The notes under the pieces: model-generated
Seen by the model: the letters and a program-made list of their open reading frames with translations, nothing else
Told to the model about the DNA's origin: nothing
The model's database searches: none
Shown here: positions 21,520 to 36,321 of the stretch, in pieces
Layout: every line of letters begins with the position of its first letter
How positions within the stretch are numbered: position 1 is the stretch's first letter
Assembly: GCA_031416075.1 (NCBI GenBank)
Contig: JANOSY010000026.1
Span: 1 to 44,693, forward strand
Source: Candidatus Tenderia sp.
GTDB lineage: Bacteria; Pseudomonadota; Gammaproteobacteria; Tenderiales; Tenderiaceae
Reading direction: 5' to 3'
Length of the DNA: 44,693 bases
Program-made: the position numbers and the translations under genes

Positions 21520-22287
21520 TTAGCCGCTTTTTGGTTGATAGCCGAGCCGGGCGGAGAGTTTTACCCCGGCCTCTATCACCCGTGGCAACCACTCCTGACG
21601 GCGGCGCTGGATGGGGGCCGATACCGATAGCCCAGCCACCATTTGTCCAGAGGTATCACGGATGGGTACGGCGATGCAGCCCACGCCGGGTTCTGCCTCT
21701 TCGTCATCAAAGGCGTAACCGCGTTGGCGTGCCTCTTCGACGCAGGCAATAAGTTGGGCAAGGTCGGTGATGGTATTGGTGGTATAGGATTCCAGTCCGT
21801 GGTGCTGGGCGTAGCGGGCGCAGGCCATTGCCCCTTCGTCGGCCAGAAACAGTTTGCCGGCGGCGGTGACGTGCAGGGGTGCGCGGCTGCCGATCATCTG
21901 TTCGACCCGCATCGCCTTCTGGCTCAAGGCCCGCTCTATATATACCAGTACGTCACCTTCGCGGATGGTGAGGTTGACGGTTTCACCAATTTCGCTTCGC
22001 AGCCACTCCATCACCGGCAGTGCCTCCCGGCGCGGGTCAAACGGGCGTTGGGTGCGGGCGGCCAGTGTCAGCAGGTGGGGGCCGAGTCGGTATAGTCCCC
22101 CTTCGCTACGCTCCACCAGTTGGTGCTGGGTGAGTGATGCCAGGATGCGGTGGGCGGTGGAGGGGTGTAACCCGGTCTCGGCAGCGACTATTTTGAGGCT
22201 TAGTGGGGCCTCCTGTTGGCCAAGGGCGTCGAGTAGCCTAACAAGTCGATCGATCACCTGTATGGAGGTAGTGGTTGGCGCTTTCAT
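21520..22287 (-). CDS. IclR family transcriptional regulator
   Basis: SIQVIDR, GLHPSTAHRIL HTH, GETVNL, RAPLHVTAAGK, GYAFDDEE..GVGCIAVPI. Confidence 0.95.
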   Translation of the reverse strand: MKAPTTTSIQVIDRLVRLLDALGQQEAPLSLKIVAAETGLHPSTAHRILASLTQHQLVERSEGGLYRLGPHLLTLAARTQRPFDPRREALPVMEWLRSEIGETVNLTIREGDVLVYIERALSQKAMRVEQMIGSRAPLHVTAAGKLFLADEGAMACARYAQHHGLESYTTNTITDLAQLIACVEEARQRGYAFDDEEAEPGVGCIAVPIRDTSGQMVAGLSVSAPIQRRRQEWLPRVIEAGVKLSARLGYQPKSG

Positions 22288-22300
22288 TTCATCTTGAGCA

Positions 22301-22329
22301 TTTCATATTGTGCATTTCATATTATGAAA
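22301..22329. promoter_or_regulatory. Candidate IclR operator
   Basis: Perfect palindrome TTTCATA-T-TATGAAA (22315-22329) plus an imperfect copy TTTCATATTGTGCAT (22301-22315) in the divergent intergenic region. Confidence 0.7.
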
Positions 22330-22409
22330 CGTGTTGTGTATTGCGGAATAGTATTCCCTGGAATAGCATCGATGCAAGTTCAAAATCATCAATGTAAGGA
22401 GATTTGGTT

Positions 22410-24596
22410 ATGGCGATTCAGCCCCCAGCGTTTTGTGACGGCATTCAATATTTTGGCGAACCTTGGGCGGACCACGCCCAATATGCGGCAGAGGCGGTGA
22501 TTGGCAAAGGGGCGTCGGCGGTTGCCGACCCACGTAGCGCCAGTGCGGCGTACCAGACCTTGCTGGGGGCCGATGCCCTGCGTTACCTCACTTTGCAGAT
22601 GACGGCGGCCAAGGCCTCTGGTCACCCCGGAGGGTTTGCCAGCAGTGCCGAGGCACATGCGGCGCTGATTATGCTTGGCCATACCAACATCCTGACCGAG
22701 GTGGGACACCACGCCCCTGGGTTTTACAGCTCGATGTTTCTGGATACCTCGCTGGAGGCGATGGGGATCGGCACGGTTCAGCAGCTGCGTGACCGTTACC
22801 GTGAAAAACATGGGCTGCTGGGCCATCTCTCAGGGGCCATCCCTGGCATTCTGGCCCCGGCGGGGCCGCTGGGGCAGGGGCAGCACTTTGCTATGGCCGG
22901 GGCGCTGTTGCATCCTGGCACACTCTTCCCCTTCACCATCGGTGACGGTGGCATGGGGGAGCCGTATGTGTTGAATGCCATGATGCACTTTCATATTGCC
23001 TACCCCACGGTGACCAACTTTCTGCCGGTGCTGATCTGGAATGGTTATAGCCAGGAGCACCACTCCATGGTGGCGACCCTGAGCGAAGAGGCGTTGATCA
23101 ATTACTGGAGGGGACACGGTTTTGAGCAGGTTTATTTGGTGGATGCCAAGCCGTTTGATGATGCGGGCCAGAGCGGGGCGTTTGTAGATAGCAGCCGCTT
23201 TTCACTGCCACAGCGGCTGGCGTTTACGGCGGCGGTGCTGGAGGGGATGGATCAGGCGGCACAATCGGCGCTGGCGGGCAGGTTGACCGTCTTTATCATC
23301 AAACAGCTGAAAGGGGCGGGCGTACACGCCCTGGGGGCTAAATCCCACAACCTCTATCCACAACATACATTGGAAAACGAGGCGGTGGTTGAGGGGCTGA
23401 AGCGTCGTGCGCTCTCGCCCCAGGGGTGGCAGATTGTGCGTGACAACTTCAGCCGCGCCGGGGGTGGGCCATCATCCCGTACGGCGGTCACCGAGTCGGT
23501 ATTGTCACTGACCCCGATTGACCCTCTGACGCTGACAGATTTTGCCGTGGGTGAGAGCAAAGCCCCGACCACTGCCATGGGGGTATTGGTGGCAGAGGTG
23601 GGGCGTCAGGATCGCCGCTTTGTGGTGACCAACGCCGATGGCAACGAGGCCTCGGGTATTGGCAACATCAACGAAGCACTACAGATTCGTCACCCGACGG
23701 TGGATGCGCTCTATCACCAGGGGCCAACGGGCCAGGTCTATGAGCCGCTGAACGAAGATGCCTGTGCCGGTCTGGCCGCCGGGCTGGCACTACTGGGGAG
23801 CCGGACACTCTGGTGCTCCTATGAAAGTTTTGCCATCAATGGCCTGCCGATCTGGCAGACTGTGACCCAGGCGATGGCGGAGCTGCGTCGTAAGACCCCT
23901 TCAACGGTCACGCTCTTTACCGCTGGCGCATTGGAACAGGGGCGCAACGGTTGGACCCATCAGCGCCCGGAGATTGAGGCCTACTTTGCGGCGATGATGC
24001 GTAACGGCAATATATTCCCGCTGTTTCCGGTGGATGCCAACATGGTCCAGGTCGCCTATGCCTGGGCGCTGGATACTTATAATAAGGGGGTGGTGATCAC
24101 CGCCTCCAAGAGTCCCCTGCCGATTCGCACCACGCTGGAGCAGGGGCGCCAGGCGCTGCACGATGGTGCCATTACGCTCGTTGATCGTCCCGGTAATCGA
24201 AGTGTAGTCTTTGCCGTGGTGGGGGATATGGTGCTGTTACCAGTACTGGCAGCGGCTGAGCAGCTGGTGGCCCAGGGGTGTGGGGTACGGGTGGTAGCGG
24301 TGGTTAATCCACGCCGCCTCTACCGTGCCAGTGATGTTGCCTGGCAGGACTGTGCAGAGCCTGACAGTCTGTTTCTTGACGATAGCGGTTTTAATGCGCT
24401 GTTTGATGGCGACCTGCTGATCGGGGTGAGTGGTGGCCCCAGTGCCACGCTGGAGCCGGTTATGCTACGTAGCCGTGCCGCGCGGCGTGATCAGTTTGCC
24501 TGGAAGCGGGGCGAGACCACGGCCTCAGCGGCGGAGCTTATGGCGCTTAACGGCCTGACGGCGGATGCATTGGTGGCGCGGGCCTTGGCGATTTAG
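22410..24596 (+). CDS. ThDP-dependent transketolase/phosphoketolase-like enzyme
   Basis: SGHPGG, AGPLGQG, GDGGMGE...WNG ThDP motif, SYESF, NGWTHQRPE; AAGGAG RBS before ATG 22410. Confidence 0.85.
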   Translation: MAIQPPAFCDGIQYFGEPWADHAQYAAEAVIGKGASAVADPRSASAAYQTLLGADALRYLTLQMTAAKASGHPGGFASSAEAHAALIMLGHTNILTEVGHHAPGFYSSMFLDTSLEAMGIGTVQQLRDRYREKHGLLGHLSGAIPGILAPAGPLGQGQHFAMAGALLHPGTLFPFTIGDGGMGEPYVLNAMMHFHIAYPTVTNFLPVLIWNGYSQEHHSMVATLSEEALINYWRGHGFEQVYLVDAKPFDDAGQSGAFVDSSRFSLPQRLAFTAAVLEGMDQAAQSALAGRLTVFIIKQLKGAGVHALGAKSHNLYPQHTLENEAVVEGLKRRALSPQGWQIVRDNFSRAGGGPSSRTAVTESVLSLTPIDPLTLTDFAVGESKAPTTAMGVLVAEVGRQDRRFVVTNADGNEASGIGNINEALQIRHPTVDALYHQGPTGQVYEPLNEDACAGLAAGLALLGSRTLWCSYESFAINGLPIWQTVTQAMAELRRKTPSTVTLFTAGALEQGRNGWTHQRPEIEAYFAAMMRNGNIFPLFPVDANMVQVAYAWALDTYNKGVVITASKSPLPIRTTLEQGRQALHDGAITLVDRPGNRSVVFAVVGDMVLLPVLAAAEQLVAQGCGVRVVAVVNPRRLYRASDVAWQDCAEPDSLFLDDSGFNALFDGDLLIGVSGGPSATLEPVMLRSRAARRDQFAWKRGETTASAAELMALNGLTADALVARALAI

Positions 24597-24660
24597 GGGG
24601 AGGGGAGACTAACTGCCAGTGGCGGTGGGGTCACCCTGTATGGGTAGCGATGGGGTATAC

Positions 24661-25959
24661 ATGACAAAAAACAAGATCATCGTCCTTGATGACGACCCTA
24701 CCGGTTCACAGGCGGTGCATGGTTGCCTGCTGTTGACCCGCTGGGATACGGAGACGTTACGTGCCGGGCTGGCGGACAGTGCGCCGCTCTTTTTTATCCT
24801 GACCAATACCCGTGCCATGAGTCCTGAACGGGCTGCCGCCGTGACGCGGGAGGTCTGCTGCAATCTGCAACAGGCGCTGCTGGGCAGCGGCATCAATCCG
24901 GTGCTGGTGAGCCGTTCTGACTCCACCTTGCGTGGCCACTATCCGGTGGAGACCGATGTGATGGCGGAGCTGCTTGGCCCGTTTGACGCCCATTTTCTGG
25001 TGCCAGCCTTTTTTGAGGGGGGGCGCACCACCCGTGACGGTACCCACTACCTGCGGGTGGATGGTGTTGATACCCCGGTGCATGAGACGGAGTTTGCCCG
25101 TGATTCTCTGTTTGGTTATCAACACAGTTACCTGCCCGACTATGTAGAGGAGAAGACCCATGGCCGCATTGTGGCGGCTGATGTGGTGCATCTGACGCTT
25201 GATGCAATTAAAGAAGGGGTATTGCCACGACTGCTGGCGCTGGCTAATAACCAGTGTTGTGTTGTGGATGCCCAGGGTTACGACGATCTGAACCGGTTTA
25301 CTGCTGCTGTACGCGCCGCTGCCAGTGAGGGCAAACGGTTCCTGTTTCGCAGTGCCGCCAGCCTGGTCAAGGCGCTGGCCGATCTGCCGGTGCAGCCGGT
25401 GGCGGCCGAGGCGATGGGCCAATTCAACCGTGGCGGTCGGGCTGGCGCGGTGCTGGTGGGTTCCCATGTGGAGAAATCCAGCCGCCAATTGGCGCGGCTG
25501 CTACAGGAACCGGGGGTGACGGGCATCGAGATCGACGTCAGCCGCCTGCCGGCAGACCATAATGAGTTGCTGCGCAGCGCGCTGGCGGAGGTTGAGGCGG
25601 CGTTTGCGGCGGGGCGTACGGCGGTGATCTATACCCGGCGTGGTGAGGTAGTGTTTCCCGATGCGCAGCGGCGGCTTGCCTTTGGCGAGTCGATATCGGC
25701 GCTGCTGATGGCGCTGGTGCGGGGGTTGCCACGGGCGTTGGGATTTTTGATCAGTAAGGGGGGGATCACCTCTAACGATGTGCTGAGTGAGGGGTTGGCG
25801 CTGAGCGCTGCCCGCCTGCTGGGTCAGGTGGAGGCGGGGGTCTCGGTGGTGCGGTGTCCTGATGATCACCCCCGCTTTCCCTTGTTGCCGGTGGTGATTT
25901 TTCCCGGCAATGTAGGTGATGATGAGGCGCTGGCGCGGGTCTGCCAGCGGTTCTCCTGA
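24661..25959 (+). CDS. Four-carbon acid sugar kinase family protein (DUF1537, OtnK/DtnK-like)
   Basis: IVLDDDPTG, LTNTR, SRSDSTLRGH, PAFFEGGR, KGGITS, FPGNVG. Confidence 0.9.
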   Translation: MTKNKIIVLDDDPTGSQAVHGCLLLTRWDTETLRAGLADSAPLFFILTNTRAMSPERAAAVTREVCCNLQQALLGSGINPVLVSRSDSTLRGHYPVETDVMAELLGPFDAHFLVPAFFEGGRTTRDGTHYLRVDGVDTPVHETEFARDSLFGYQHSYLPDYVEEKTHGRIVAADVVHLTLDAIKEGVLPRLLALANNQCCVVDAQGYDDLNRFTAAVRAAASEGKRFLFRSAASLVKALADLPVQPVAAEAMGQFNRGGRAGAVLVGSHVEKSSRQLARLLQEPGVTGIEIDVSRLPADHNELLRSALAEVEAAFAAGRTAVIYTRRGEVVFPDAQRRLAFGESISALLMALVRGLPRALGFLISKGGITSNDVLSEGLALSAARLLGQVEAGVSVVRCPDDHPRFPLLPVVIFPGNVGDDEALARVCQRFS

Positions 25960-25961
25960 CC

Positions 25962-27419
25962 ATGTCGTCACAGACCGCACTGCTGGAGGCGTTGCGGCTG
26001 CTGTTGCCACGCGGCGCGCTGCTCTGTGATGAAGAGGATTTGCATCCGTACGAGTGTGATGGGCTGTCGGTCTACCGTGCCCTGCCACTGGCGGTCTGTC
26101 TGCCGGAGACGGTGGAGCAGGTGCAGCAGATCCTGCAGCTCTGTTATGCGCGGCGGGTGCCGGTTGTGGCCCGGGGGGCCGGTACCGGACTGTCGGGAGG
26201 GGCGCTGCCAAGCCCCGGTTGTGTGGTGCTGAGCCTGGCCAAATTTACCTCTATTCTGGAGATTGATCCGGATAACCGCATCGCCCGGCTCCAGCCCGGT
26301 GTGCGTAATCTGGCCATCTCCCAGGCGGTGGCCTGCCATGGGCTCTATTACGCGCCGGACCCCTCATCACAGATCGCCTGCACCATCGGTGGCAATGTGG
26401 CGGAGAATTCGGGTGGGGTGCACTGCTTGAAGTATGGGCTGACGGTGCATAACGTGCTGGGTATCAAACTGCTGACGATGGCCGGTGAGCTGCTGGTGAT
26501 CGGCGGTGCGACCCTTGATGCCCCTGGGTATGATCTGCTGGCAGTGATTAATGGCTCGGAAGGGTTGATGGGGGTGATTGTGGAGGTCACCGTCAAACTC
26601 CTGGTCAAGCCGGAGCGCGCCCAGGTAGTGCTGGCGGCGTTTGACGATATTGGTCGTGCCGGTGAGGCGGTGGGTGGCATTATCGCCGCCGGTATTTTGC
26701 CCGCCGGGCTGGAGATGATGGATAACCTGGCCATCCGTGCCGCCGAGGCCTATAGCCATGCCGGTTACCCGGTGGATGCGGCGGCGATTATTCTGTGCGA
26801 GCTGGATGGGGGTAATGAGGAGGTCTCGGAGCAGATCAGCTGCGTCCGTCAGCTGTTGCTGAAAGCGGGGGCGATTGATGTGCGTAGCTCCCGCGATGAG
26901 GCCGAGCGGCTCCAGCTCTGGGCCGGGCGTAAGGCGGCCTTTCCGGCGGTGGGGCGGATGGCCCCTGACTACTACTGCATGGATGGCACCATTCCCCGGC
27001 GGCGGCTGGCGGAGGTGCTGGTCCGGATCAGCGAGATGTCCCGTGAGTATGGGTTGGTGGTGGCCAATGTCTTTCATGCCGGTGACGGCAACCTGCATCC
27101 GCTGATCCTGTACGATGCCAACAAACCGGGTGAGTTGGCCCGTACGGAGGCGTTTGGCGGGCGGATTCTTGAGTTATGTATCGCCGTGGGCGGTACGATT
27201 ACCGGGGAACATGGGGTGGGCATGGAGAAGATCGACCAGATGTGCCACCAGTTTAACCCGCCTGAACTGGCGCAATTTCACGCCCTTAAACACGCCTTTG
27301 ACCCTGACGGTCTGCTCAACCCCGGTAAGGCGGTGCCAACGCTGCACCGTTGTGCCGAGCTGGGGGGGATGCACGTCCACGGTGGTAAGTTACCCTTTCC
27401 TGAGCTGGAGCGGTTTTGA
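25962..27419 (+). CDS. glcD: Glycolate oxidase/dehydrogenase FAD subunit
   Basis: YECDGL, RGAGTGLSGGA, YAPDPSSQIACTIGGN, HAGDGNLHP, GEHGVG, C-terminal LHRCAELGGMHVH. Confidence 0.96.
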   Translation: MSSQTALLEALRLLLPRGALLCDEEDLHPYECDGLSVYRALPLAVCLPETVEQVQQILQLCYARRVPVVARGAGTGLSGGALPSPGCVVLSLAKFTSILEIDPDNRIARLQPGVRNLAISQAVACHGLYYAPDPSSQIACTIGGNVAENSGGVHCLKYGLTVHNVLGIKLLTMAGELLVIGGATLDAPGYDLLAVINGSEGLMGVIVEVTVKLLVKPERAQVVLAAFDDIGRAGEAVGGIIAAGILPAGLEMMDNLAIRAAEAYSHAGYPVDAAAIILCELDGGNEEVSEQISCVRQLLLKAGAIDVRSSRDEAERLQLWAGRKAAFPAVGRMAPDYYCMDGTIPRRRLAEVLVRISEMSREYGLVVANVFHAGDGNLHPLILYDANKPGELARTEAFGGRILELCIAVGGTITGEHGVGMEKIDQMCHQFNPPELAQFHALKHAFDPDGLLNPGKAVPTLHRCAELGGMHVHGGKLPFPELERF

Positions 27420-28492
27420 TGGAGCAGGATTTGGATCAGGATCTGGGTCAGGTATTGCAGCAGCAGGTTCGTGCTGCCTATGAGCAGGGGCGACCACTCC
27501 ACATTGTGGGCAGTGGCAGTAAAGGTTTTTATGGTCGCCGTGTGGCGGCGATGCCACTGGCGCTGACGGGCCATCGGGGCGTGGTCAGTTATGAGCCAAC
27601 TGAGCTGGTGATCACCGCCCGAGCGGGAACGCCGCTGGTGGAGATTGAGGCGCTGTTGGCTGAACATGGTCAGATGCTTGCTTTTGAACCTCCCCGCTTT
27701 GGTGGTATGGGGACCATTGGCGGGGCGATTGCCTCTGGCTTTTCGGGGCCGCGTCGCCCTTATGTCGGTTCGGCGCGTGATTTTGTGCTTGGCTGTCGTA
27801 TGGTCAACGGTCAGGGCGAGACCCTCCGTTTTGGCGGTGAGGTGATGAAAAATGTCGCCGGTTTTGATGTGGCGCGGCTGATGGCCGGTGCCTTTGGCAC
27901 CCTTGGTCTGTTGCTGGAGGTGTCGCTGAAGGTGTTGCCACGCCCAGAGCAGTCGTTGACACTGGTCTTTGCCGTGGAGCCGCAGGCGGTGGTGGCGGAG
28001 ATGGTCCGCCTCTCAAACCAGCCGTTGCCACTCTCGGCCATGCTCTATGGGGAGGGGCAGCTCTATCTGCGACTCTCCGGTGCAGCATCGGCGCTGCGCG
28101 CGGCACAGACCGTGCTCGGGGGCGAGGTGGTAGAGGCGGCAGACCGTTTTTGGAATCAGCATCGGGATCAGAGCCACCCCTTTTTTGGTGGGCATGGGCC
28201 GCTGTGGCGACTCTCCCTGCCGCCCGCCACACCGTTGTTGGCGTTGCCCGGTGAGTCGTTGATCGAGTGGGGCGGGGCGCAGCGCTGGTTGCGAAGCGAC
28301 GCCCCGGTCGAGCAGGTCCGTCAGGCGGCGGCGAGTGTGGGTGGCCACGCCACCCTGTTTCGCGGCGGTGATCGTGACGCCGAACCTCAGCAACCGCCTG
28401 CGGCGGCGATGATGCAGATGCAGGGGCGTATTAAGACTGCGTTTGATCCTGGCGGCATCTTTAATCCTGGCCTTCTATATAGAGACTTTTGA
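27419..28492 (+). CDS. glcE: Glycolate oxidase FAD-binding subunit
   Basis: YEPTELVITARAGTPL, FGGEVMKNVAGFD, EWGGAQRW, FDPGGIFNPG. Confidence 0.95.
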   Translation: MEQDLDQDLGQVLQQQVRAAYEQGRPLHIVGSGSKGFYGRRVAAMPLALTGHRGVVSYEPTELVITARAGTPLVEIEALLAEHGQMLAFEPPRFGGMGTIGGAIASGFSGPRRPYVGSARDFVLGCRMVNGQGETLRFGGEVMKNVAGFDVARLMAGAFGTLGLLLEVSLKVLPRPEQSLTLVFAVEPQAVVAEMVRLSNQPLPLSAMLYGEGQLYLRLSGAASALRAAQTVLGGEVVEAADRFWNQHRDQSHPFFGGHGPLWRLSLPPATPLLALPGESLIEWGGAQRWLRSDAPVEQVRQAAASVGGHATLFRGGDRDAEPQQPPAAAMMQMQGRIKTAFDPGGIFNPGLLYRDF

Positions 28493-29721
28493 TGCAGACG
28501 CAACTCTCTGAACAGTTTGGTGCCACCGCTGCCGGCAGCGAGGCTGAGCGTATTATTCGTAGCTGTGTACATTGTGGTTTTTGCACCGCTACCTGTCCTA
28601 CCTATCAGTTGCTGGGGGATGAGCTGGATGGGCCGCGGGGCAGGATCTATCTGATCAAACAGATGTTGGAAGGGAACGAGGTGAGCCGGAAGACTCAGGG
28701 CCATCTTGATCGCTGCCTCACCTGTCGCGCCTGTGAAACAACCTGCCCATCTGGGGTGGAGTATGGCCGTTTGGTGGATATTGGCCGCGCTGAGACGGAG
28801 CGGCGGGTGGTGCGTCCGCTGAGCCAACGTCTGGCCCGTCGGTTGTTGATGGCGGTGATCCCGTATAAAACTCGGTTTGGTCTGTTGTTACGTATTGGAC
28901 AGGCAGTGCGGCCACTGCTGCCAATGAAGTTGCGCCGCGCTATTCCCATCGCGACAGCGCCACCGATATGGCCGGCGGTACGTCACTCCCGGCGAATGGT
29001 GGCGCTGGGTGGCTGTGTGCAACCGGCGCTGGCCCCCAATATTGATGCGGCACTGGCGCGGGTGCTTGATGGCATCGGCATCTCCCTGCTGCAGACCCCT
29101 GATTCAGGCTGTTGTGGTGCAGTGAGCCACCATCTTAGCGCCGAGGCGCGTACCCTGGCGTTTGCCCGGCGTAATATCGACGCCTGGTGGCCGGCGATTG
29201 AAGCGGGGGCTGAGGCGATTATTGTCACCGCCAGTGGCTGTGGTGTGGTGGTGAAAGAGTATGGCTACCTGCTGCGGGATGATCCCGACTATGCCGCCAA
29301 GGCGGCGCGGGTGGCTGAGCTGGCACGTGATCCGGTGGAGGTATTGCTGGCAGAGCGTGAGGCGGTGGTGGCCCGATTTCGTCTGGCCCAGCCGGTTGCC
29401 GTTGCCTTTCACTCCCCTTGCACCCTTCAGCACGGGCAGAAGCTGCCGGGGCGGGTGGAGTCTCTGCTACGGGAGTGTGGTTATCAATTGACGGAGGTGG
29501 CGGACGCTCACCTCTGCTGTGGATCTGCTGGCACCTATTCGTTGACACAGCCGACGTTGTCGCGGCAGTTACGCAGTAACAAACTCGCTGCATTAGAGGC
29601 GGGCAAACCGGTAATAATCGCTACGGCCAATATCGGTTGCCTTAGCCACTTGCAGGGTGGAACGGATACGCCGATCACACACTGGATCGAGATGTTTGAT
29701 CGTAATCTCAATGCAGTTTGA
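28492..29721 (+). CDS. glcF: Glycolate oxidase iron-sulfur subunit
   Basis: CVHCGFCTATCP and CLTCRACETTCP 4Fe-4S motifs; two CCG domains. Confidence 0.96.
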   Translation: MQTQLSEQFGATAAGSEAERIIRSCVHCGFCTATCPTYQLLGDELDGPRGRIYLIKQMLEGNEVSRKTQGHLDRCLTCRACETTCPSGVEYGRLVDIGRAETERRVVRPLSQRLARRLLMAVIPYKTRFGLLLRIGQAVRPLLPMKLRRAIPIATAPPIWPAVRHSRRMVALGGCVQPALAPNIDAALARVLDGIGISLLQTPDSGCCGAVSHHLSAEARTLAFARRNIDAWWPAIEAGAEAIIVTASGCGVVVKEYGYLLRDDPDYAAKAARVAELARDPVEVLLAEREAVVARFRLAQPVAVAFHSPCTLQHGQKLPGRVESLLRECGYQLTEVADAHLCCGSAGTYSLTQPTLSRQLRSNKLAALEAGKPVIIATANIGCLSHLQGGTDTPITHWIEMFDRNLNAV

Positions 29722-30734
29722 TTAGCGTGACTTCTCGTGTCGTAGTGCTGGTGGCCACCACTCTATTTTTATTATTCAGTGGTCAATCATATGTCAGTGC
29801 TGCTGATGTAGCATCCCCGTGTCTGTTGATGGATAACAATGTCGATCAGCTTGACTGTTTCAGAAAAAATAGCAGCAGTGACAATCATAGTGCTGCTTCT
29901 CAAACAGAAAACAAGCCAATGATAAAACCGTCGCTCACCAGCATATGGGAGCTGAATGACGAACATAATCGGGGTACTTTTCACCTTCAGCCATATCGCG
30001 CCAACTATTTTTTGCCGGTTAGATATAGCAACCGGATGAATCTGAAACCCAACAGCCCAGCAGATGATCATTCAATAATTAATGACCTGCCATTGAATGT
30101 GACGGAGGCAAAATTTCAGTTCAGTGTTAAATTCAAGGTATGGGAGACGTTGTTTAAAAACAATGGCGACCTCTGGTTTGGTTATACACAGCAATCAAAT
30201 TGGCAGCTTTATAATGGAACCGATATTGTCTCTGCCGCATTTCGTGAAACCAACTATGAACCAGAAGTGATCCTCACGTTAAGAACAGATAGATCTCTAT
30301 TGGGCTGGCACTGGCGTATGTTGAATATTGGATTTTTGCATCAATCGAATGGACGGGAGCTACCGTTGTCGCGCAGCTGGAATAGATTATACGGAGAGTT
30401 TGGATTGGAAAGAGGTCGGCTTACCCTGAATGTGCGACCGTGGTTAAGAGTGCCCGAAAAAAGTAAAAAAGATGACAATTCCGATATTCGTTATTATCTG
30501 GGGTCAAGTGATACACGTTTGACCTACGTGGATGACGGCAATGTCTATTCAATACTCGGTCGTTACAGTATGAGTGGCCGACGTGGTGCCTTGCAGTTGG
30601 ATTGGGCCTTTCCTATCTCTGGTGCATTAAAGGGATACGTACAGCTATTTAGTGGTTATGGTGAGAGCCTGATTGACTACAACCATTCGCAGACAGTGTT
30701 AGGTGTTGGTGTTCTGCTGGTGCCCTGGCAGTAG
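29718..30734 (+). CDS. pldA: Outer membrane phospholipase A1 (OMPLA)
   Basis: EAKFQFSVK, YTQQSNWQ, FRETNYEPE, catalytic HQSNG, SRSWNR, GYGESLIDYN; exact start uncertain. Confidence 0.9.
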   Translation: MISVTSRVVVLVATTLFLLFSGQSYVSAADVASPCLLMDNNVDQLDCFRKNSSSDNHSAASQTENKPMIKPSLTSIWELNDEHNRGTFHLQPYRANYFLPVRYSNRMNLKPNSPADDHSIINDLPLNVTEAKFQFSVKFKVWETLFKNNGDLWFGYTQQSNWQLYNGTDIVSAAFRETNYEPEVILTLRTDRSLLGWHWRMLNIGFLHQSNGRELPLSRSWNRLYGEFGLERGRLTLNVRPWLRVPEKSKKDDNSDIRYYLGSSDTRLTYVDDGNVYSILGRYSMSGRRGALQLDWAFPISGALKGYVQLFSGYGESLIDYNHSQTVLGVGVLLVPWQ

Positions 30735-30866
30735 CAGTATTGACTGTATAGTCAGGAATGGCTGCTTCGGTATGTTTACTGTGGAGCTGTTCTGGTGTAA
30801 TCCGCCATGTTAAACGGTATTGTTTGGCGATACTGATTGCCGTGGGCAAACAAAAGGAAGCGTGTT

Positions 30867-31664
30867 GTGTGGTTTCGTACTGGATGTGATATTACCTTTG
30901 ACGTCAGCGTTGATACGCCGTTTATCCTGATGTTGCGTCCACGCAGTGGACATAATCAATGGGTGGCGCGCGAGTCCTACACCTTGAAGCCCAGCGTACT
31001 GGCGGTTGAGTTCACCGATACTTATGGGAATCTTTGCCAGCGGCTGGTTGCACCGCCGGGTACTTTTTCCATACATACCTCGGCGGATATATTAATTGCC
31101 GACGGTATCATCACCAATCCAGGTGCTCCCTTTGAGGATGTGCAGACATTACCCGACGCGGTGCTTACCTATCTTCTGCCTTCACGGTATTGTGAGGCGG
31201 ACAGGTTTATCGATTTGGGTCAGGAGATTGTTGCCGGGGCCTTGCCAGGTTACGATCAAGTGGCCGCTATAGAGAACTGGATACGTAATAATATTCGTTT
31301 TAATCCAGACTCCCCTCATTTTCAGCTGTCTGCGGTAGAGGTCAATCGGCAGCGTGAAGGGGTGTGTCGTGATCTTGCGCACATAGCCATAGCGCTCTGT
31401 CGTGGTCTCTGTATCCCTGCACGTATGGTGGTGGGATATCTGCATAATTTGGTACCGATGGATTTTCATGCTTGGTTTGAGGCATATGTGGGTGGCCGCT
31501 GGTATACCTTTGATGCAACTCAGCCTCACTCTTGTGGTGGTCGTATCACGGTAGCCTACGGGCGTGATGCTGCGGATGTGGCCATCTTCAACCAGTTTGG
31601 CCCTGTGTTATATCCACGGACGATGTCCGTCCATGTGGCGATGCTGGATGAGGCACCTGATTAA
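30867..31664 (+). CDS. Transglutaminase-like protein
   Basis: [17 protein letters not shown] and FDAT supply the Cys-His-Asp triad; GRDAADVA. Start approximate. Confidence 0.9.
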
Positions 31665-31666
31665 TT

Positions 31667-32524
31667 ATGATGCAGCGATTGCGTATTAAACATCTGACGG
31701 AATATGTTTTCTCTACTCCTGTGGTGCTCAAGCAGCATCGATTGTTATTACGCCCACGCGAGGGACATGATGTACGTATTGAATCGTCAAAGCTGGATAT
31801 TACACCCGCGTACAATATTAAATGGCAGCGTGATGTATTTGATAACTCCCTGGCACTGGTCAATTTTCAGGGCCACTCAAGGCAGTTAACCATAGCCAGT
31901 GAGGTGGTTATCCAGCACTTTGACCATGCACCTTACGATTTTCTGGTTGACGACTATGCAGTTAATTTTCCTTTTAACTATGCGCTGGATGAACAGGCTG
32001 ATTTGGCGGCGTATCAGCAGCTGATCTTTCCCAATGATCGGTACATTATCAACGAGTGGTTGTTGCCATTGGGGCTGTATGGCATGCAGACCTTTGGCCT
32101 GTTGTTGAAATTGAATCAGACCATCAACAGTCAGTTTTTATATCAGGTAAGAGAGGAGGCGGGGGTTCAATCGCCGACACAGACGCTAGTACAGCGCAGT
32201 GGTTCTTGCCGCGATTACGCCACGCTTTTTATTGAAGCTTGCCGCTGTCTGGGTTTGGCTAGCCGTTTTGTTAGTGGTTATTTACACGCGCCAGCAACAG
32301 AAGCTGGTAATGCCACCACCCACGCTTGGGTGGAGGTTTATCTACCCGGCACCGGTTGGAAAGGGTTTGATCCGACGTCTGGTGTGGTGACCGGCAATCG
32401 ACATATCGCCGTTGCGGTTGCACGTGACCCAGAAGCGGTGCCGCCCGTCTCGGGCAGCTTTGTCGGGCCGGATGTGACAACGCCGACACTGCGGGTGAAT
32501 GTGCAAGTGAATCTGCTTGTATGA
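31667..32524 (+). CDS. Transglutaminase-like protein with bacterial N-terminal domain
   Basis: LRIKHLTEY, GSCRDYA, RFVSGY, THAWVEVYLPG, FDPT. Confidence 0.92.
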   Translation: MMQRLRIKHLTEYVFSTPVVLKQHRLLLRPREGHDVRIESSKLDITPAYNIKWQRDVFDNSLALVNFQGHSRQLTIASEVVIQHFDHAPYDFLVDDYAVNFPFNYALDEQADLAAYQQLIFPNDRYIINEWLLPLGLYGMQTFGLLLKLNQTINSQFLYQVREEAGVQSPTQTLVQRSGSCRDYATLFIEACRCLGLASRFVSGYLHAPATEAGNATTHAWVEVYLPGTGWKGFDPTSGVVTGNRHIAVAVARDPEAVPPVSGSFVGPDVTTPTLRVNVQVNLLV

Positions 32525-32683
32525 AGTGCAGATAATTACTTTATCTGGTTGACGGTGGTATATCCGCTCTACCCAGTATAGTTAACGACACATCTATTTA
32601 GTTTGTGGTTTGTTAGTGACCTGCCTTTATTTGAGCACGCATCTTGCTAAGAATGAATATGGAAGTTATTTATAGGACCGCGT

Positions 32684-34135
32684 ATGTCGATTGATTTTAA
32701 AAATTATGATTCTGGCAAGTGCTACGACGAACTGATCTCCAGTAAGGGTAATCCGCGGCGCGTGGCGCAAGTGTTGTGTCGCTATTTTTCCAAGTTGAAC
32801 GATGCCGAGGTCACCGAGCTGAAACAAGCGGTGGATCTGGCCATCAAGGCGCTGGGCATCTCTTTTACGGTGTATAGCGAAGGGAATAATATTGATCGTT
32901 CATGGCCGCTGGATCTGATTCCACGCATGATCAGCAGCAAGGAGTGGCAGAAGACCGATCGCGGCCTCAAACAGCGATTGATGGCCCTCAATCTGTTTAT
33001 TGATGATCTCTATCACAAACAGCGGATTGTGAAGGATGGTGTATTTCCGCCAGAGGTACTGGCGGGCGCACGTAACTATCGCAAACAGTGCGAAGGGGTC
33101 TCGCCCCCTTTTGGTGTCTGGGCCCATATTTGTGGCGCTGATTTGGTGCGTGGTGGTGATGGTACTCAGTATGTGCTGGAGGATAACCTGCGTGTCCCTT
33201 CCGGTGTCTCCTACATGCTGGAGAATCGCCACGTTATGAAGCGGGTCTTCCCGGAGCTTTTTGAAGATATAAATATACTGCCGGTGGATGATTACACCAC
33301 CCAGCTATACGAGATGCTGGCGGCCATCTCGCCACGTCAGGGCGAAGTGCCGGAGGTGGTGGTACTAACGCCGGGCATCTACAACTCCGCCTATTTTGAA
33401 CACAGCTATCTGGCCCAACAGATGGGCGCCGGACTGGTGCAGGGCAGCGACCTGGTGGTGGATAGTGATGATTGTGTCTACATGCGCACTATCTATGGCA
33501 TGAAACGGGTCGATGTGATCTACCGTCGTATCGATGATGACTTTCTCGATCCAGAGGCGTTTCGTAAAGATTCAGCCCTTGGCGTAAAGGGGCTGATGCG
33601 CGCCTGGCGCAAGGGCAACGTGGCAATCGCCAACGCACCCGGCGCGGGCGTGGCGGATGACAAGGTGGTCTACGCCTTTGTGCCGGAGATGATTCGTTAC
33701 TACCTGGGTGAAGAGCCGATCATCCCCAACGTGCCCACCTATCTCTGCATGAAGGAGGAGGATCGTAACTATGTGCTCGATCATCTTGCCGAGCTGGTGG
33801 TAAAACCGGCCAACGAATCGGGTGGTTATGGCCTGCTGATTGGGCCGCATGCCACCAAAAAGGAGCTTAAAGAGTTTGCCGCCCTGATCAAACATGATCC
33901 ACGCAACTATATCGCCCAGCCGACACTTGATCTCTCCACTGTGCCAACTCTGGTGGATGGTGGCGTGGCGCCACGCCATGTTGACCTGCGTCCCTTCACA
34001 CTGCAAGGCAAAAAGATTTATGTCACCACCGGTGGCCTGAGTCGTGTTGCACTGCCGGAAGGGTCGCTGGTGGTCAATTCGTCGCAAGGGGGTGGCAGTA
34101 AAGATACCTGGGTTGTAGATGTGGGAGATAAATAA
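32684..34135 (+). CDS. Circularly permuted type 2 ATP-grasp protein
   Basis: VLEDNLRVPSGVSY, LTPGIYNSAYFEH, DVIYRRIDDDFLDP, VVNSSQGGGSKDTWV. Confidence 0.95.
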   Translation: MSIDFKNYDSGKCYDELISSKGNPRRVAQVLCRYFSKLNDAEVTELKQAVDLAIKALGISFTVYSEGNNIDRSWPLDLIPRMISSKEWQKTDRGLKQRLMALNLFIDDLYHKQRIVKDGVFPPEVLAGARNYRKQCEGVSPPFGVWAHICGADLVRGGDGTQYVLEDNLRVPSGVSYMLENRHVMKRVFPELFEDINILPVDDYTTQLYEMLAAISPRQGEVPEVVVLTPGIYNSAYFEHSYLAQQMGAGLVQGSDLVVDSDDCVYMRTIYGMKRVDVIYRRIDDDFLDPEAFRKDSALGVKGLMRAWRKGNVAIANAPGAGVADDKVVYAFVPEMIRYYLGEEPIIPNVPTYLCMKEEDRNYVLDHLAELVVKPANESGGYGLLIGPHATKKELKEFAALIKHDPRNYIAQPTLDLSTVPTLVDGGVAPRHVDLRPFTLQGKKIYVTTGGLSRVALPEGSLVVNSSQGGGSKDTWVVDVGDK

Positions 34136-35067
34136 TGTTGTCGCGGGTAGCTGAAAACGTATATTGGATGGCGCGTTATCTGGAGCGGGCTGAAGATACC
34201 GCGCGGCTGATCAATAGCATGTCCAACTTGTTGCTCGACATGCCTAATGATGTGGAGATTGGCTGGTACGAGCTGCTCAATGTGGTCGGTGCTGAAAAAC
34301 TCTACAACGAACACTATCCGGATAAAACTGACGAGCGCACGGTGATGCGTTTTCTTATTTGCGATACGCGCAACCCCGGCGCCATCGTCACCTGCATCAA
34401 CGCCATGCGCGAAAATGCCCGTGTCAGCCGTGACATCGTGCCCAATGAAGTGTGGGAGCAGGCCAACGAGTTGTTTCTCTATTCGTCGGAGCACGCCAAG
34501 GCGTCGGTCAGCCGCCGCAAGCGCAGCGACTTTATGAGCGGTGTGATCCGCGGCTGTCAGACTATGACCGGCATCATGATGGGCACACTGCCCCATGACG
34601 ATGCCTACCAGTTTCTGCGCATCGGTCGTAACCTGGAGCGGGCCGATATGAGCAGCCGCATTATCGATATGGCGGCGGCCAGGCTGCTGTCGGAGGAGGA
34701 GGATTTCAACCCGGCCTTTGCCACGGTGCGCTGGATCAGCGTGCTTAAATCACTGAATGCCTTCCAGGCCTATCGGCAGCAGGGGTTTCTTGGTGTCAAT
34801 GGCGCCAATGTGCTCGACTATCTGCTGCATAAACGAGATTTCCCCCGCTCCATGGGTCACTGTCTGGAGGAGGTTGGTAGCTGTTTTGCGGCGATTCAAA
34901 ATCCAGAGGTGCCGTATACCCATCTCAATAAACTGCTTAAGGAGCTGGAGGCAGTCAACACCAAACAGCTTAAACGTAGCGGATTGCATAAATTCATCGA
35001 CCAGTTCCAGGTAGGCGTTGGCCAGTTGCACAAGGCGATTGCCGACACCTATTTTCGTATCCAATAG
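34135..35067 (+). CDS. Alpha-E domain protein
   Basis: MLSRVAENVYWMARYLERAEDTAR and GRNLERAD (ER motifs), FPRS; coupled to the ATP-grasp gene. Confidence 0.95.
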   Translation: MLSRVAENVYWMARYLERAEDTARLINSMSNLLLDMPNDVEIGWYELLNVVGAEKLYNEHYPDKTDERTVMRFLICDTRNPGAIVTCINAMRENARVSRDIVPNEVWEQANELFLYSSEHAKASVSRRKRSDFMSGVIRGCQTMTGIMMGTLPHDDAYQFLRIGRNLERADMSSRIIDMAAARLLSEEEDFNPAFATVRWISVLKSLNAFQAYRQQGFLGVNGANVLDYLLHKRDFPRSMGHCLEEVGSCFAAIQNPEVPYTHLNKLLKELEAVNTKQLKRSGLHKFIDQFQVGVGQLHKAIADTYFRIQ

Positions 35068-35613: not shown

Positions 35614-36321
35614 TCAATCACCACAAGACGCTTTCCTCGGCCTACCCACCCCTTTCGATATAGTGCGTCGTTGGGACAGGCGCTCGATCTGTTCCTTGAA
35701 CCGTTCACTACCCAGCGCCCAGCCCTTGTGCGTACATTCCCGAATTTCTTTCAACGCGTCGTTTGAAACAGCCGCCCTGAACAATTGCCGATAGGCGCTT
35801 TGTCGGTCCGCCGCGCTCCGACCCAGGCGCTGATACTCCTTGTGGGGCGTCAGCCAATCCGCGTTCGGCCCGGTTTCGCCCTGCGCATTGAAGGCGTAAC
35901 TTGACCAGGAATAGTCTCTCGGGTGCGTCACCATGCCTGCCCGCGCGGGGTTGAGTTCGATATAGCGCATCAAGGTCAGCAGGTACTGCTCGCTATCCAC
36001 CACCGTCGCGCGGTAGCGCCCTTCCCACAAGGTGCCGCTGCGCTTGTAGGTGTAGTTGAAGTACTGCACGTATTTTCTTCCCGCAGACTGGAAGACCTTG
36101 CTGATGCTGTCGTCGAATTCAGGGGTGGCCAGCAGATGAATGTGGTTGGTCATCCAGACATAGGCGTGAATGGCCAGGCCTTGCTTAAGCGCAGCATCAA
36201 CCAGCGCATCACGGAAGAACTGATAATCCGCTTCGGCGGCAAAGATCGCTTGCCGGTTGTTGCCACGCTGGATGATGTGCTGCGGCTGGCCAGGGATAAC
36301 GTAGCGAGGAAGACGGGCCAT
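35614..36321 (-). CDS. REP-associated tyrosine transposase (RAYT, HUH Y1 family), apparently intact
   Basis: MARLPR..HIIQRGNNR, MTNHIHLL (HUH), GTLWEGRY, RYIELNP (catalytic Tyr), WSSY. Confidence 0.92.
   Translation of the reverse strand: MARLPRYVIPGQPQHIIQRGNNRQAIFAAEADYQFFRDALVDAALKQGLAIHAYVWMTNHIHLLATPEFDDSISKVFQSAGRKYVQYFNYTYKRSGTLWEGRYRATVVDSEQYLLTLMRYIELNPARAGMVTHPRDYSWSSYAFNAQGETGPNADWLTPHKEYQRLGRSAADRQSAYRQLFRAAVSNDALKEIRECTHKGWALGSERFKEQIERLSQRRTISKGVGRPRKASCGD

Follow-up and report, generated by a model that had tools for sequence, protein, structure and literature searches.

How does an autotroph that makes glyoxylate with the glycolate dehydrogenase GlcDEF dispose of it when the usual glyoxylate-consuming genes are missing? 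The question is raised by a locus of Candidatus Tenderia sp. (Gammaproteobacteria; Tenderiales; Tenderiaceae), which lies in positions 1 to 44,693 of contig JANOSY010000026.1 (assembly GCA_031416075.1); we call this whole stretch of 44,693 nucleotides the window. In it, a gene for an IclR-family regulator is divergent from an operon that encodes a thiamine diphosphate (ThDP) enzyme, a kinase of the DUF1537 family and the three subunits of glycolate dehydrogenase (Table 1). A preliminary description of this DNA had taken the first two for a transketolase-like enzyme and a 3-oxo-tetronate-type kinase that would convert glyoxylate into dihydroxyacetone phosphate (DHAP). From the analysis that follows, we consider it rather probable that the IclR regulator, the ThDP enzyme and the kinase form one module of Rubisco autotrophs that disposes of the glyoxylate made by GlcDEF, as the lower part of phosphoglycolate salvage or in glycolate use. 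The chemistry that had been proposed, from glyoxylate to 3-oxo-tetronate, on to its 4-phosphate and then to DHAP and CO2, we put forward much more tentatively. Our argument is built on gene content, adjacency, co-inheritance, association with Rubisco and conservation of an operator, and from these we infer every substrate and product named below.

The kinase and glcD genes are 2 bp apart, and a 4-bp overlap is found at glcD/glcE and again at glcE/glcF, so that the operon given in the preliminary description is borne out in its order, its coordinates, its gap and its overlaps. The dehydrogenase genes stand in D-E-F order, with GlcE and GlcF above their equivalog cut-offs and GlcD slightly below. 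Because the arrangement recurs in many genomes, we do not attribute the juxtaposition to chance. The true start of the kinase is probably the ATG at 24661 and not the start of its open reading frame (ORF), since homologues align only from kinase residue 14-18. A Pfam and NCBIfam scan of the ORFs finds no glcB, gcl or glxR in the window, as had been claimed; the same claim had covered bhcABCD, which no scanned ORF resembled in a scan not specifically directed at that family. The absence of glcB and gcl extends to the whole host genome (3.49 Mb, 99.98% complete), which has no Gcl over the cut-off, no malate synthase and no hyi, glxK, glcB, glcG or glcA. In this the host differs from E. coli, with its glc operon (glcDEFGBA, GlcC) and its glycerate pathway (gcl-hyi-glxR-glxK, AllR): the GlcDEF subunits are orthologues at 50-68% identity, the regulator is an IclR-family protein of the AllR/IclR/BhcR kind and both systems serve glycolate use, but here the ThDP enzyme and the kinase stand where the glyoxylate-consuming genes would be. 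The host has a form I Rubisco, which supports the autotrophy that could not be seen from the window.

Table 1. Position and best family matches of the operon genes, the divergent regulator gene and the candidate operator in the window
Feature	Position	Strand	Remarks
iclR-family regulator gene	21520-22287	-	divergent from operon; Pfam IclR_C 147 bits, HTH_IclR 54 bits
Candidate IclR operator	22315-22349		palindrome TTTCATATTATGAAA (22315-22329) and element TGTATTGCGGAAT (22337-22349)
ThDP enzyme ORF	22404-24596	+	probable ATG at 22410 behind AAGGAG; 728 aa from 22410
DUF1537 kinase ORF	24619-25959	+	Pfam SBD_N 198 bits (E 2e-58), NBD_C 130 bits (E 2e-37)
glcD, glycolate dehydrogenase FAD subunit	25962-27419	+	NF008408 827 bits, just below the 897 cut-off; 68% identity to E. 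coli GlcD
glcE, glycolate dehydrogenase FAD-binding subunit	27416-28492	+	NF008439 505 bits, cut-off 284; 50% identity to E. coli GlcE
glcF, glycolate dehydrogenase Fe-S subunit	28489-29721	+	NF008434 656 bits, cut-off 333; 59% identity to E. coli GlcF

The strongest tie is that between the ThDP enzyme and the kinase. In a sample of genomes of the class, the ThDP enzyme is found in 27 of the 300 scored genomes (G253 was left out of the scoring of the ThDP enzyme, the kinase and Gcl), and a kinase orthologue is present in all 27. A kinase without the ThDP enzyme occurs in two genomes of this sample, in the form of relatives at 41-42% identity. In a sample of Cyanobacteriota, 48 of 151 genomes have the ThDP enzyme, each of them together with a kinase of at least 55% identity, and five genomes have a kinase (43-53% identity) alone. 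When both samples are pooled, the kinase orthologue is found in 75/75 genomes with the ThDP enzyme. Since the two genes are mostly far apart in cyanobacteria, this co-inheritance is not a by-product of adjacency. The pair is also tied to Rubisco, as came out when the co-occurrence check proposed in the preliminary description was run: Rubisco is present in 24 of the 27 class carriers versus 102 of the 274 other genomes. The three carriers that lack Rubisco have a completeness of 81-86%; among the 23 high-quality carriers, none is without it. Among the Rubisco-bearing genomes of the class sample, the pair is found in 24/126 and Gcl in 2/126. In a FastTree tree of 104 sequences of the ThDP enzyme, all 68 non-proteobacterial sequences fall in a single clade (support 0.98) with no proteobacterial member within it, which argues against frequent recent exchange between phyla.

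Some observations on individual genomes belong here. The neighbourhoods of the kinase in the seven kinase-only genomes (G037, G249, G343, G358, G415, G436 and G447; 41-53% identity) hold no functional hint. In one carrier (G113:C3:1659653-1660955), the match to the kinase is broken into two pieces that overlap, covering residues 15-241 and 231-443, which suggests a frameshift or a split gene. The ThDP protein of L051, which is labelled as an Actinomycetota metagenome-assembled genome, falls inside the cyanobacterial clade and has cyanobacterial-like neighbours; the contig is probably mis-binned.

The neighbourhoods connect the pair to glycolate. A scan with one genome per species gave 578 relatives of the ThDP enzyme. 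We retained the 80 best loci, of which 12 are labelled as proteobacterial, 65 as cyanobacterial and 3 under other names. The 80-locus set and the class sample may overlap and are not independent, and neighbouring ORFs were taken with a crude longest-ORF script that sometimes chose opposite-strand ORFs in GC-rich DNA. At the 12 proteobacterial loci of the best 80, the kinase is adjacent in 10, the other two being without room for it, and glcDEF is present in 7. For the 26 other carriers of the class sample, the kinase adjoins the ThDP gene in 24 (the remaining two are contig ends), an iclR orthologue is divergent from the ThDP gene in 23, and glcD, glcE or glcF lies at most 9 kb from the ThDP gene in 11. 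Carriers that have room for glcDEF and do not have it linked all have a GlcD orthologue elsewhere (10/10, at 61-81% identity), and GlcD is found in 21/21 carriers examined, a count made in carriers only. The conserved linkage to glcDEF on which the preliminary description relied thus stands in part: the set of ThDP enzyme, kinase and IclR regulator is conserved and the link to glycolate dehydrogenase is recurrent, but only roughly one proteobacterial carrier in two has glcDEF next to the pair. In cyanobacteria, the kinase lies within 10 kb of the ThDP gene in just 9 of 68 loci, and in 5/5 genomes with an unlinked gene it is found elsewhere in the genome. A Gloeobacterales locus has a GlcE-like and a GlcF-like gene directly upstream of the ThDP gene. 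A tripartite ATP-independent periplasmic (TRAP) transporter follows the kinase in three loci (L103, L106 and L109), and in two of them it separates the kinase from glcDEF. The binding protein of this transporter resembles the lactate-binding TTHA0766 of Thermus so closely (423 bits, E 1e-125) that uptake of a small 2-hydroxy acid is indicated, and the transporter in these clusters may be a glycolate importer. At one locus, a class II fructose-bisphosphate-aldolase-type aldolase (PF01116; L103:12401-13252) comes directly after the kinase, and is a candidate for a missing decarboxylase or aldolase step. We regard the link of the module to glycolate/glyoxylate and to autotrophy as well supported.

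The cyanobacterial neighbours are genes unrelated to the pair. Upstream of the cyanobacterial ThDP gene, on the opposite strand, 23 of the 80 loci have up to three genes that resemble cytochrome P450, often together with phytoene-desaturase-like and saccharopine-dehydrogenase-like genes; all these names were assigned solely by inspection of the sequences. The genes minC-minD-minE follow the cyanobacterial kinase on the same strand in 11/20 loci. In several cyanobacteria, an ORF of about 220 aa without a Pfam match stands directly before the kinase gene (e.g. L131:7145-7834 and L069:13924-14586); it was recovered from 7 loci in the clustering of the 80 loci and from 7 in that of the kinase loci.

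What kind of enzyme is the ThDP protein? Its Pfam matches are weak, with XFP at 45.6 bits (E 8e-12), XFP_N at 31.5 bits (E 1e-7) and Transket_pyr at E 3e-8; XFP and XFP_N exceed their gathering scores, and XFP_C is not detected. More than 3,000 relatives are found, of which the best 120 are at 70-83% identity, and precomputed Pfam assigns PF09363 to 2 of these 120. The protein reaches 87.9 bits on the NCBIfam phosphoketolase model, where the cut-off is 962, and at most 35.9 bits on the transketolase models, where the cut-offs are 488-788. The closest solved structures by sequence are the phosphoketolase 3ahc (E 4e-23) and then transketolases (E 1e-6). A fold search ties both classes, with the phosphoketolase 8ioe (E 1.1e-24, template modelling score 0.61) next to the transketolase 8r3s (E 5.8e-24, 0.53), at 17-19% identity to the solved structures compared; the AlphaFold model of the enzyme is moderate (mean predicted local distance difference test 70.9) with low-confidence active-site loops, and it is used here for the fold class only. 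By these comparisons the ThDP enzyme is placed in a third branch, equally distant from phosphoketolases and transketolases. The wording "transketolase-like enzyme" of the preliminary description does not hold up, the protein being no closer to transketolase than to phosphoketolase in sequence or in fold. The host also has a canonical phosphoketolase (G000, contig C71:1285-3645; 786 aa, 1466 bits for a cut-off of 962) and a TktA orthologue with 68% identity to E. coli TktA, and so the protein of the window is a third paralogue. As a side observation, the canonical phosphoketolase gene is followed by a histidine-phosphatase-family gene and then by a class I fructose-bisphosphate aldolase gene (C71:1285-5436, locus L154).

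Individual residues point to a working ketolase. In a HMMER alignment to the B. breve phosphoketolase, H139, E449, Y471, N513 and H517 of the ThDP enzyme correspond to His142, Glu479, Tyr501, Asn549 and His553, and all five are invariant in 20/20 members of the family. We take the equivalents of His142, Glu479 and His553 to be those expected for a dihydroxyethyl-ThDP intermediate, and the retained ketolase histidines indicate that such an intermediate would be formed from a HOCH2-CO-R donor. Titles of PDB entries name H64, H142, H320 and H553 as phosphoketolase residues that were mutated, of which H64 and H320 lie outside the alignment to the ThDP enzyme. An hhalign comparison with E. coli TktA, which has a probability of only 86%, exhibits the transketolase motifs 'SGHPG', 'GPLGQG' and 'GDG'. 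The same alignment places Ala505, Lys567 and Asn408 of the ThDP enzyme at His461, Arg520 and Ser385 of transketolase, which we take to be the positions that bind the substrate phosphate, and an Asn at Asp469. We read the protein as an intact ThDP ketolase on a separate branch, with a predicted substrate pocket unlike those of both known classes. With phosphoketolase Xfp (EC 4.1.2.9 / 4.1.2.22) and 'Pkt2' it has in common the superfamily, the fold and several catalytic residues; from Xfp it differs in being about 60-100 residues shorter, in its low identity, in its co-residence with a canonical phosphoketolase, in falling far under all NCBIfam phosphoketolase cut-offs and in having no detected XFP_C. 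With transketolase it shares the motifs, and the proposed reaction would be of transketolase type with glyoxylate as the acceptor; it differs in the four exchanged residues, in its low scores on the NCBIfam transketolase models and in its co-residence with a TktA orthologue.

Judging by similarity, the ThDP enzyme appears to belong to a cyanobacterial family known as 'Pkt2/Xfp2' (sll0529, alr1850). Recombinant Alr1850 was reportedly without phosphoketolase activity in the hands of Moriyama et al. in 2015. The Nostocaceae protein BAB73549.1 is in the 90% cluster of a protein that is 96% identical to the query from L057, and is thus a member of the ThDP-enzyme family. We assume that BAB73549.1 is alr1850, from the accession numbering and from the label 'Transketolase' in PMC4915528. 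Cyanobacterial papers call sll0529 and alr1850 'Pkt2/PKET2/xfp2'. PMC7744508 says that the phosphoketolase activity of sll0529 still requires experimental proof, and it uses modelling to argue for residual phosphoketolase flux via sll0529.

The kinase has the SBD_N and NBD_C domains of the two-domain DUF1537 type, and it is the sole DUF1537 gene of the host genome. The preliminary "3-oxo-tetronate-type kinase" is therefore right as to family, and orthology to OtnK is not found: E. coli OtnK (YgbK) has no tblastn match in the host genome at E 1e-3, a pairwise BLASTP alignment with it gives 30% identity across 219 residues (E 4e-7), and the sole NCBIfam match of the kinase is DtnK, at 78.8 bits for a cut-off of 450. 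All DUF1537 substrates that we know of are C4-C5 acid sugars. 3-Oxo-tetronate is among the few keto-acid substrates known for these kinases.

The regulator carries both the HTH_IclR and the IclR_C domain and is below every NCBIfam subtype cut-off, with BhcR the best at 171 bits of 350, followed by IclR (113/380) and AllR (91/406). BhcR, which senses glyoxylate, is the regulator of the beta-hydroxyaspartate cycle (bhcABCD), and this best match is the likeness to that cycle; the score below the cut-off and the lack of bhc-like genes linked to the operon set the two apart. Between the iclR and ThDP genes, the candidate operator sits within three tandem 14-nt repeats that start at 22285. A two-part motif, TTTCAC-n-TGAAA followed by a TATTGCGAAAT-like element, is found in most of 23 other iclR-ThDP intergenic regions, as judged by eye and with no motif statistic. 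The palindrome and second element common to these regions are likely the operator.

These elements could be assembled into a route as follows. The ThDP enzyme would form dihydroxyethyl-ThDP from one of the Calvin-cycle ketose phosphates (xylulose 5-phosphate, fructose 6-phosphate or sedoheptulose 7-phosphate), and would pass the C2 unit in transketolase fashion to glyoxylate. Transfer of HOCH2-CO- onto glyoxylate yields exactly 3-oxo-tetronate (2,4-dihydroxy-3-oxobutanoate). A kinase would be needed because this transfer creates a new primary alcohol, and the DUF1537 kinase would phosphorylate that hydroxyl. The resulting beta-keto acid, 3-oxo-tetronate 4-phosphate, would shed CO2 to give DHAP, unaided or on a metal-dependent enzyme that handles the DHAP enediolate, such as a class II aldolase. 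This 4-phosphate amounts to DHAP with an added carboxyl group, and would be expected to decarboxylate readily. PMC12994016 describes the spontaneous decarboxylation of related 3-oxo acid products and D-ribonate clusters that are commonly without a decarboxylase gene. Bound to the conserved operator, the IclR protein would act as the sensor, with glyoxylate or glycolate as its ligand. There are few ways to take glyoxylate through two steps with just a ketolase and a kinase, and the present reading remains the most economical, although we think it less likely than not.

The last two steps of such a route would be identical to those of L-threonate/D-erythronate catabolism (E. coli ygbJKLM), which also uses a DUF1537 kinase and which, reportedly in the work of Zhang et al. 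in 2016, proceeds via LtnD or DenD, OtnI, OtnK and OtnC. The operon studied here differs in having no such dehydrogenase, OtnI or OtnC, in a kinase that is no OtnK orthologue, in autotrophic hosts, and in that the keto acid would come from glyoxylate via the ThDP enzyme and not from a C4 acid sugar.

Several results weigh against the route from glyoxylate to DHAP, or against the module as a whole. For the ThDP enzyme, the equivalents of Tyr501 and Asn549 are kept and an 'SKSP' motif resembles the 'GKQP' of phosphoketolases, whose lysine we take to be Lys605, so that dehydration and phosphorolysis of the phosphoketolase type may still be within its reach. The altered phosphate-binding positions of transketolase (His461 to Ala505, Ser385 to Asn408 and Arg520 to Lys567) make an ordinary sugar-phosphate donor doubtful. 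The kinase is, by its sequence, only remotely related to OtnK and is remote from all solved DUF1537 structures, the best being 4xfr at E 1e-6. That the operon has no OtnC, which the preliminary description gave as a caveat, holds genome-wide: there is no match to E. coli OtnI in the host, and the only match to OtnC is a gene of 30% identity that is called as MtnB (178 bits, cut-off 137), so neither OtnC nor OtnI is present. The host's two genes of the class II aldolase fold (Aldolase_II) are this MtnB and an aldolase/short-chain dehydrogenase fusion. In an all-against-all clustering of the ORFs of the 80 loci, 26 class-sample loci and 27 kinase loci, iclR, the kinase and glcDEF are all that recurs, and no decarboxylase, isomerase or dehydrogenase emerges as a conserved third partner of the pair. 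Linkage to glcDEF is missing from roughly half of the proteobacterial carriers and from nearly all cyanobacteria. Because related genomes are not independent, the association counts are descriptive, and any significance drawn from them would be overstated. The host has gcvTHP, a gene that at 325 bits falls just short of the 341 cut-off for tartronate-semialdehyde reductase (TSR-like), and a glycerate-2-kinase-like gene of the MOFRL type. With these a plant-like C2 cycle is possible and a new sink may not be needed, and this weakens the argument from necessity. Finally, the proposed route is redox-neutral but less thrifty than the glycerate pathway, since it retains only one of the two carbons of glycolate.

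On host contig C46 (L085), a gene for a bifunctional class II aldolase/short-chain dehydrogenase (1109 bits) adjoins a glycerol-3-phosphate-dehydrogenase-like gene, which is unexpected for a presumed chemolithoautotroph.

Three other explanations have to be weighed. The first is that the pair acts on some other acid sugar, be it an imported alpha-hydroxy or sugar acid, a product of the ascorbate/threonate type or a dephosphorylated misfire product of Rubisco, and that it shares its regulator and neighbourhood with glcDEF only through carbon recycling. It would account well for a conserved core that is iclR-ThDP-kinase, with glcDEF adjacent in merely 11 of 26 carriers, while the presence of GlcD in every carrier examined argues for the glycolate connection. 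TRAP transporters, present in some clusters, are typical of catabolic operons, yet their binding protein is of the lactate type, for a small 2-hydroxy acid, and not of the acid-sugar type. The known DUF1537 substrates are all of the right kind for this explanation, and genomes with the kinase alone exist in both samples (two and five); against this, no dehydrogenase or isomerase of an acid-sugar pathway is linked. We also know of no reason for sulfur-oxidising chemolithoautotrophs to meet ascorbate products. L-threonate-pathway domains are reported in a plant protein in the abstract of bioRxiv 10.1101/2025.05.18.654769, a further point for acid sugars. On balance we think this explanation unlikely.

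A second explanation, to which we give rather little credence, is a carboligase variant of the glycerate pathway, in which the ThDP enzyme would decarboxylate one glyoxylate molecule and attach the remaining C1 unit to another, to give tartronate semialdehyde or hydroxypyruvate, in a Gcl-like reaction on a different fold, and the kinase would act on hydroxypyruvate or glycerate; hydroxypyruvate, for example, would become 3-phosphohydroxypyruvate by the kinase and then 3-phosphoglycerate via SerA. Such a variant would keep three of four carbons, and decarboxylating ligations are possible in the ThDP superfamily, as in DXS. The histidines kept from transketolase and phosphoketolase, however, handle the hydroxymethyl group of a ketose and would be superfluous for a C1 hydroxymethyl-ThDP mechanism. 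A substitute for Gcl would be sensible where Gcl is absent, as it is from 27/27 class carriers (it occurs in 3/300 genomes overall) and from 151/151 Cyanobacteriota, but because Gcl is so rare (3/300; 0/151) the anti-correlation is uninformative. TSR-like genes are enriched, in 10/27 carriers compared with 29/274 others (G301 counts in the class tallies as a single genome that has a TSR-like match and no ThDP enzyme, and it is not the sole basis of any claim), and one of them (G123:C2:180328-181191; 340 bits, cut-off 341) adjoins glcF beside L109, in a cluster with the kinase, ThDP and TRAP genes; the host, too, has the TSR-like and glycerate-2-kinase-like genes mentioned above. On the other side, a search at E 1e-75 finds no TSR-like gene in 17/27 carriers, the kinase would meet no primary alcohol in tartronate semialdehyde, and hyi is missing from the host genome. 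To our knowledge, no C3 substrate has been described for a DUF1537 kinase.

The third, a genuine second phosphoketolase ('Pkt2'), in line with the annotation and with what cyanobacterial flux models assume, that makes acetyl phosphate from xylulose 5-phosphate, fructose 6-phosphate or an unusual ketose (hydroxypyruvate or 3-oxo-tetronate), with the kinase in a separate step, can draw on the phosphoketolases among the best sequence and fold matches, on the five conserved catalytic residues, on a host acetate kinase (contig C87) and on the flux that the modelling in PMC7744508 assigns to sll0529, but it is improbable in view of a score of 88 bits where the host's canonical phosphoketolase has 1466, of an equal closeness to transketolases, of a strict co-inheritance with a sugar-acid kinase and a linkage to IclR and glcDEF that would be unexpected for a sugar-phosphate phosphoketolase, and of the caution with which the same source itself regards that activity as unproven. 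No pta was found in the host by tblastn with E. coli Pta.

The remainder of the window contains genes of other kinds. The upstream flank has pilSR and type IV pilus genes, unrelated to the operon. A pldA (phospholipase A1) ORF (29718-30734) overlaps the stop of glcF by 4 bp, and just past this overlap the GC content changes from 0.59 to 0.47. Positions 30837-35067 hold a cluster of two transglutaminase-like genes, a circularly permuted ATP-grasp gene and an Alpha-E domain gene. An IS200-like transposase gene (35614-36321, minus strand) is beside a giant RHS/teneurin-like ORF of 2480 aa (37216-44658, minus strand), which has PKD, cadherin-like, NHL, teneurin YD-shell and RHS repeats and extends almost to the end of the window.

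We return to the module that would dispose of glyoxylate made by GlcDEF. The enzyme families, GlcDEF and the loose annotation of the ThDP gene as a phosphoketolase or transketolase are already known. Our literature search, which left most subscription journals outside, found no paper describing the pairing of the ThDP enzyme with the kinase, its IclR/glcDEF/TRAP context or the tie to Rubisco. Judged by that search, what is new is a glycolate-utilisation operon with a different, uncharacterised lower half, and the stronger possibility is that of a new salvage pathway. Glyoxylate disposal in Calvin-cycle bacteria is only partly understood. We entertain, as a conjecture that is more apt to fail than to hold, that the sll0529/alr1850 family and its obligate DUF1537 kinase constitute an unrecognised, redox-neutral route of phosphoglycolate salvage in about one third of the sampled Cyanobacteriota and in many sulfur-oxidising chemolithoautotrophs, which would couple glyoxylate to the sugar phosphates of the Calvin cycle, in proteobacteria under a glyoxylate-sensing IclR. 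The ThDP gene is present in model cyanobacteria, where annotation, knockouts and flux models have treated it as that of a phosphoketolase isozyme ahead of biochemical proof. If the ThDP enzyme and the kinase act on glyoxylate, the flux models of cyanobacteria would need correction, there would be one more natural photorespiratory route, and engineering of photorespiration bypasses would gain a short, cofactor-neutral module of two enzymes. Whatever the chemistry, the two-gene unit spans two phyla, is co-inherited in 75/75 sampled genomes and has a tie to Rubisco, which makes it a clearly delimited and directly testable target.

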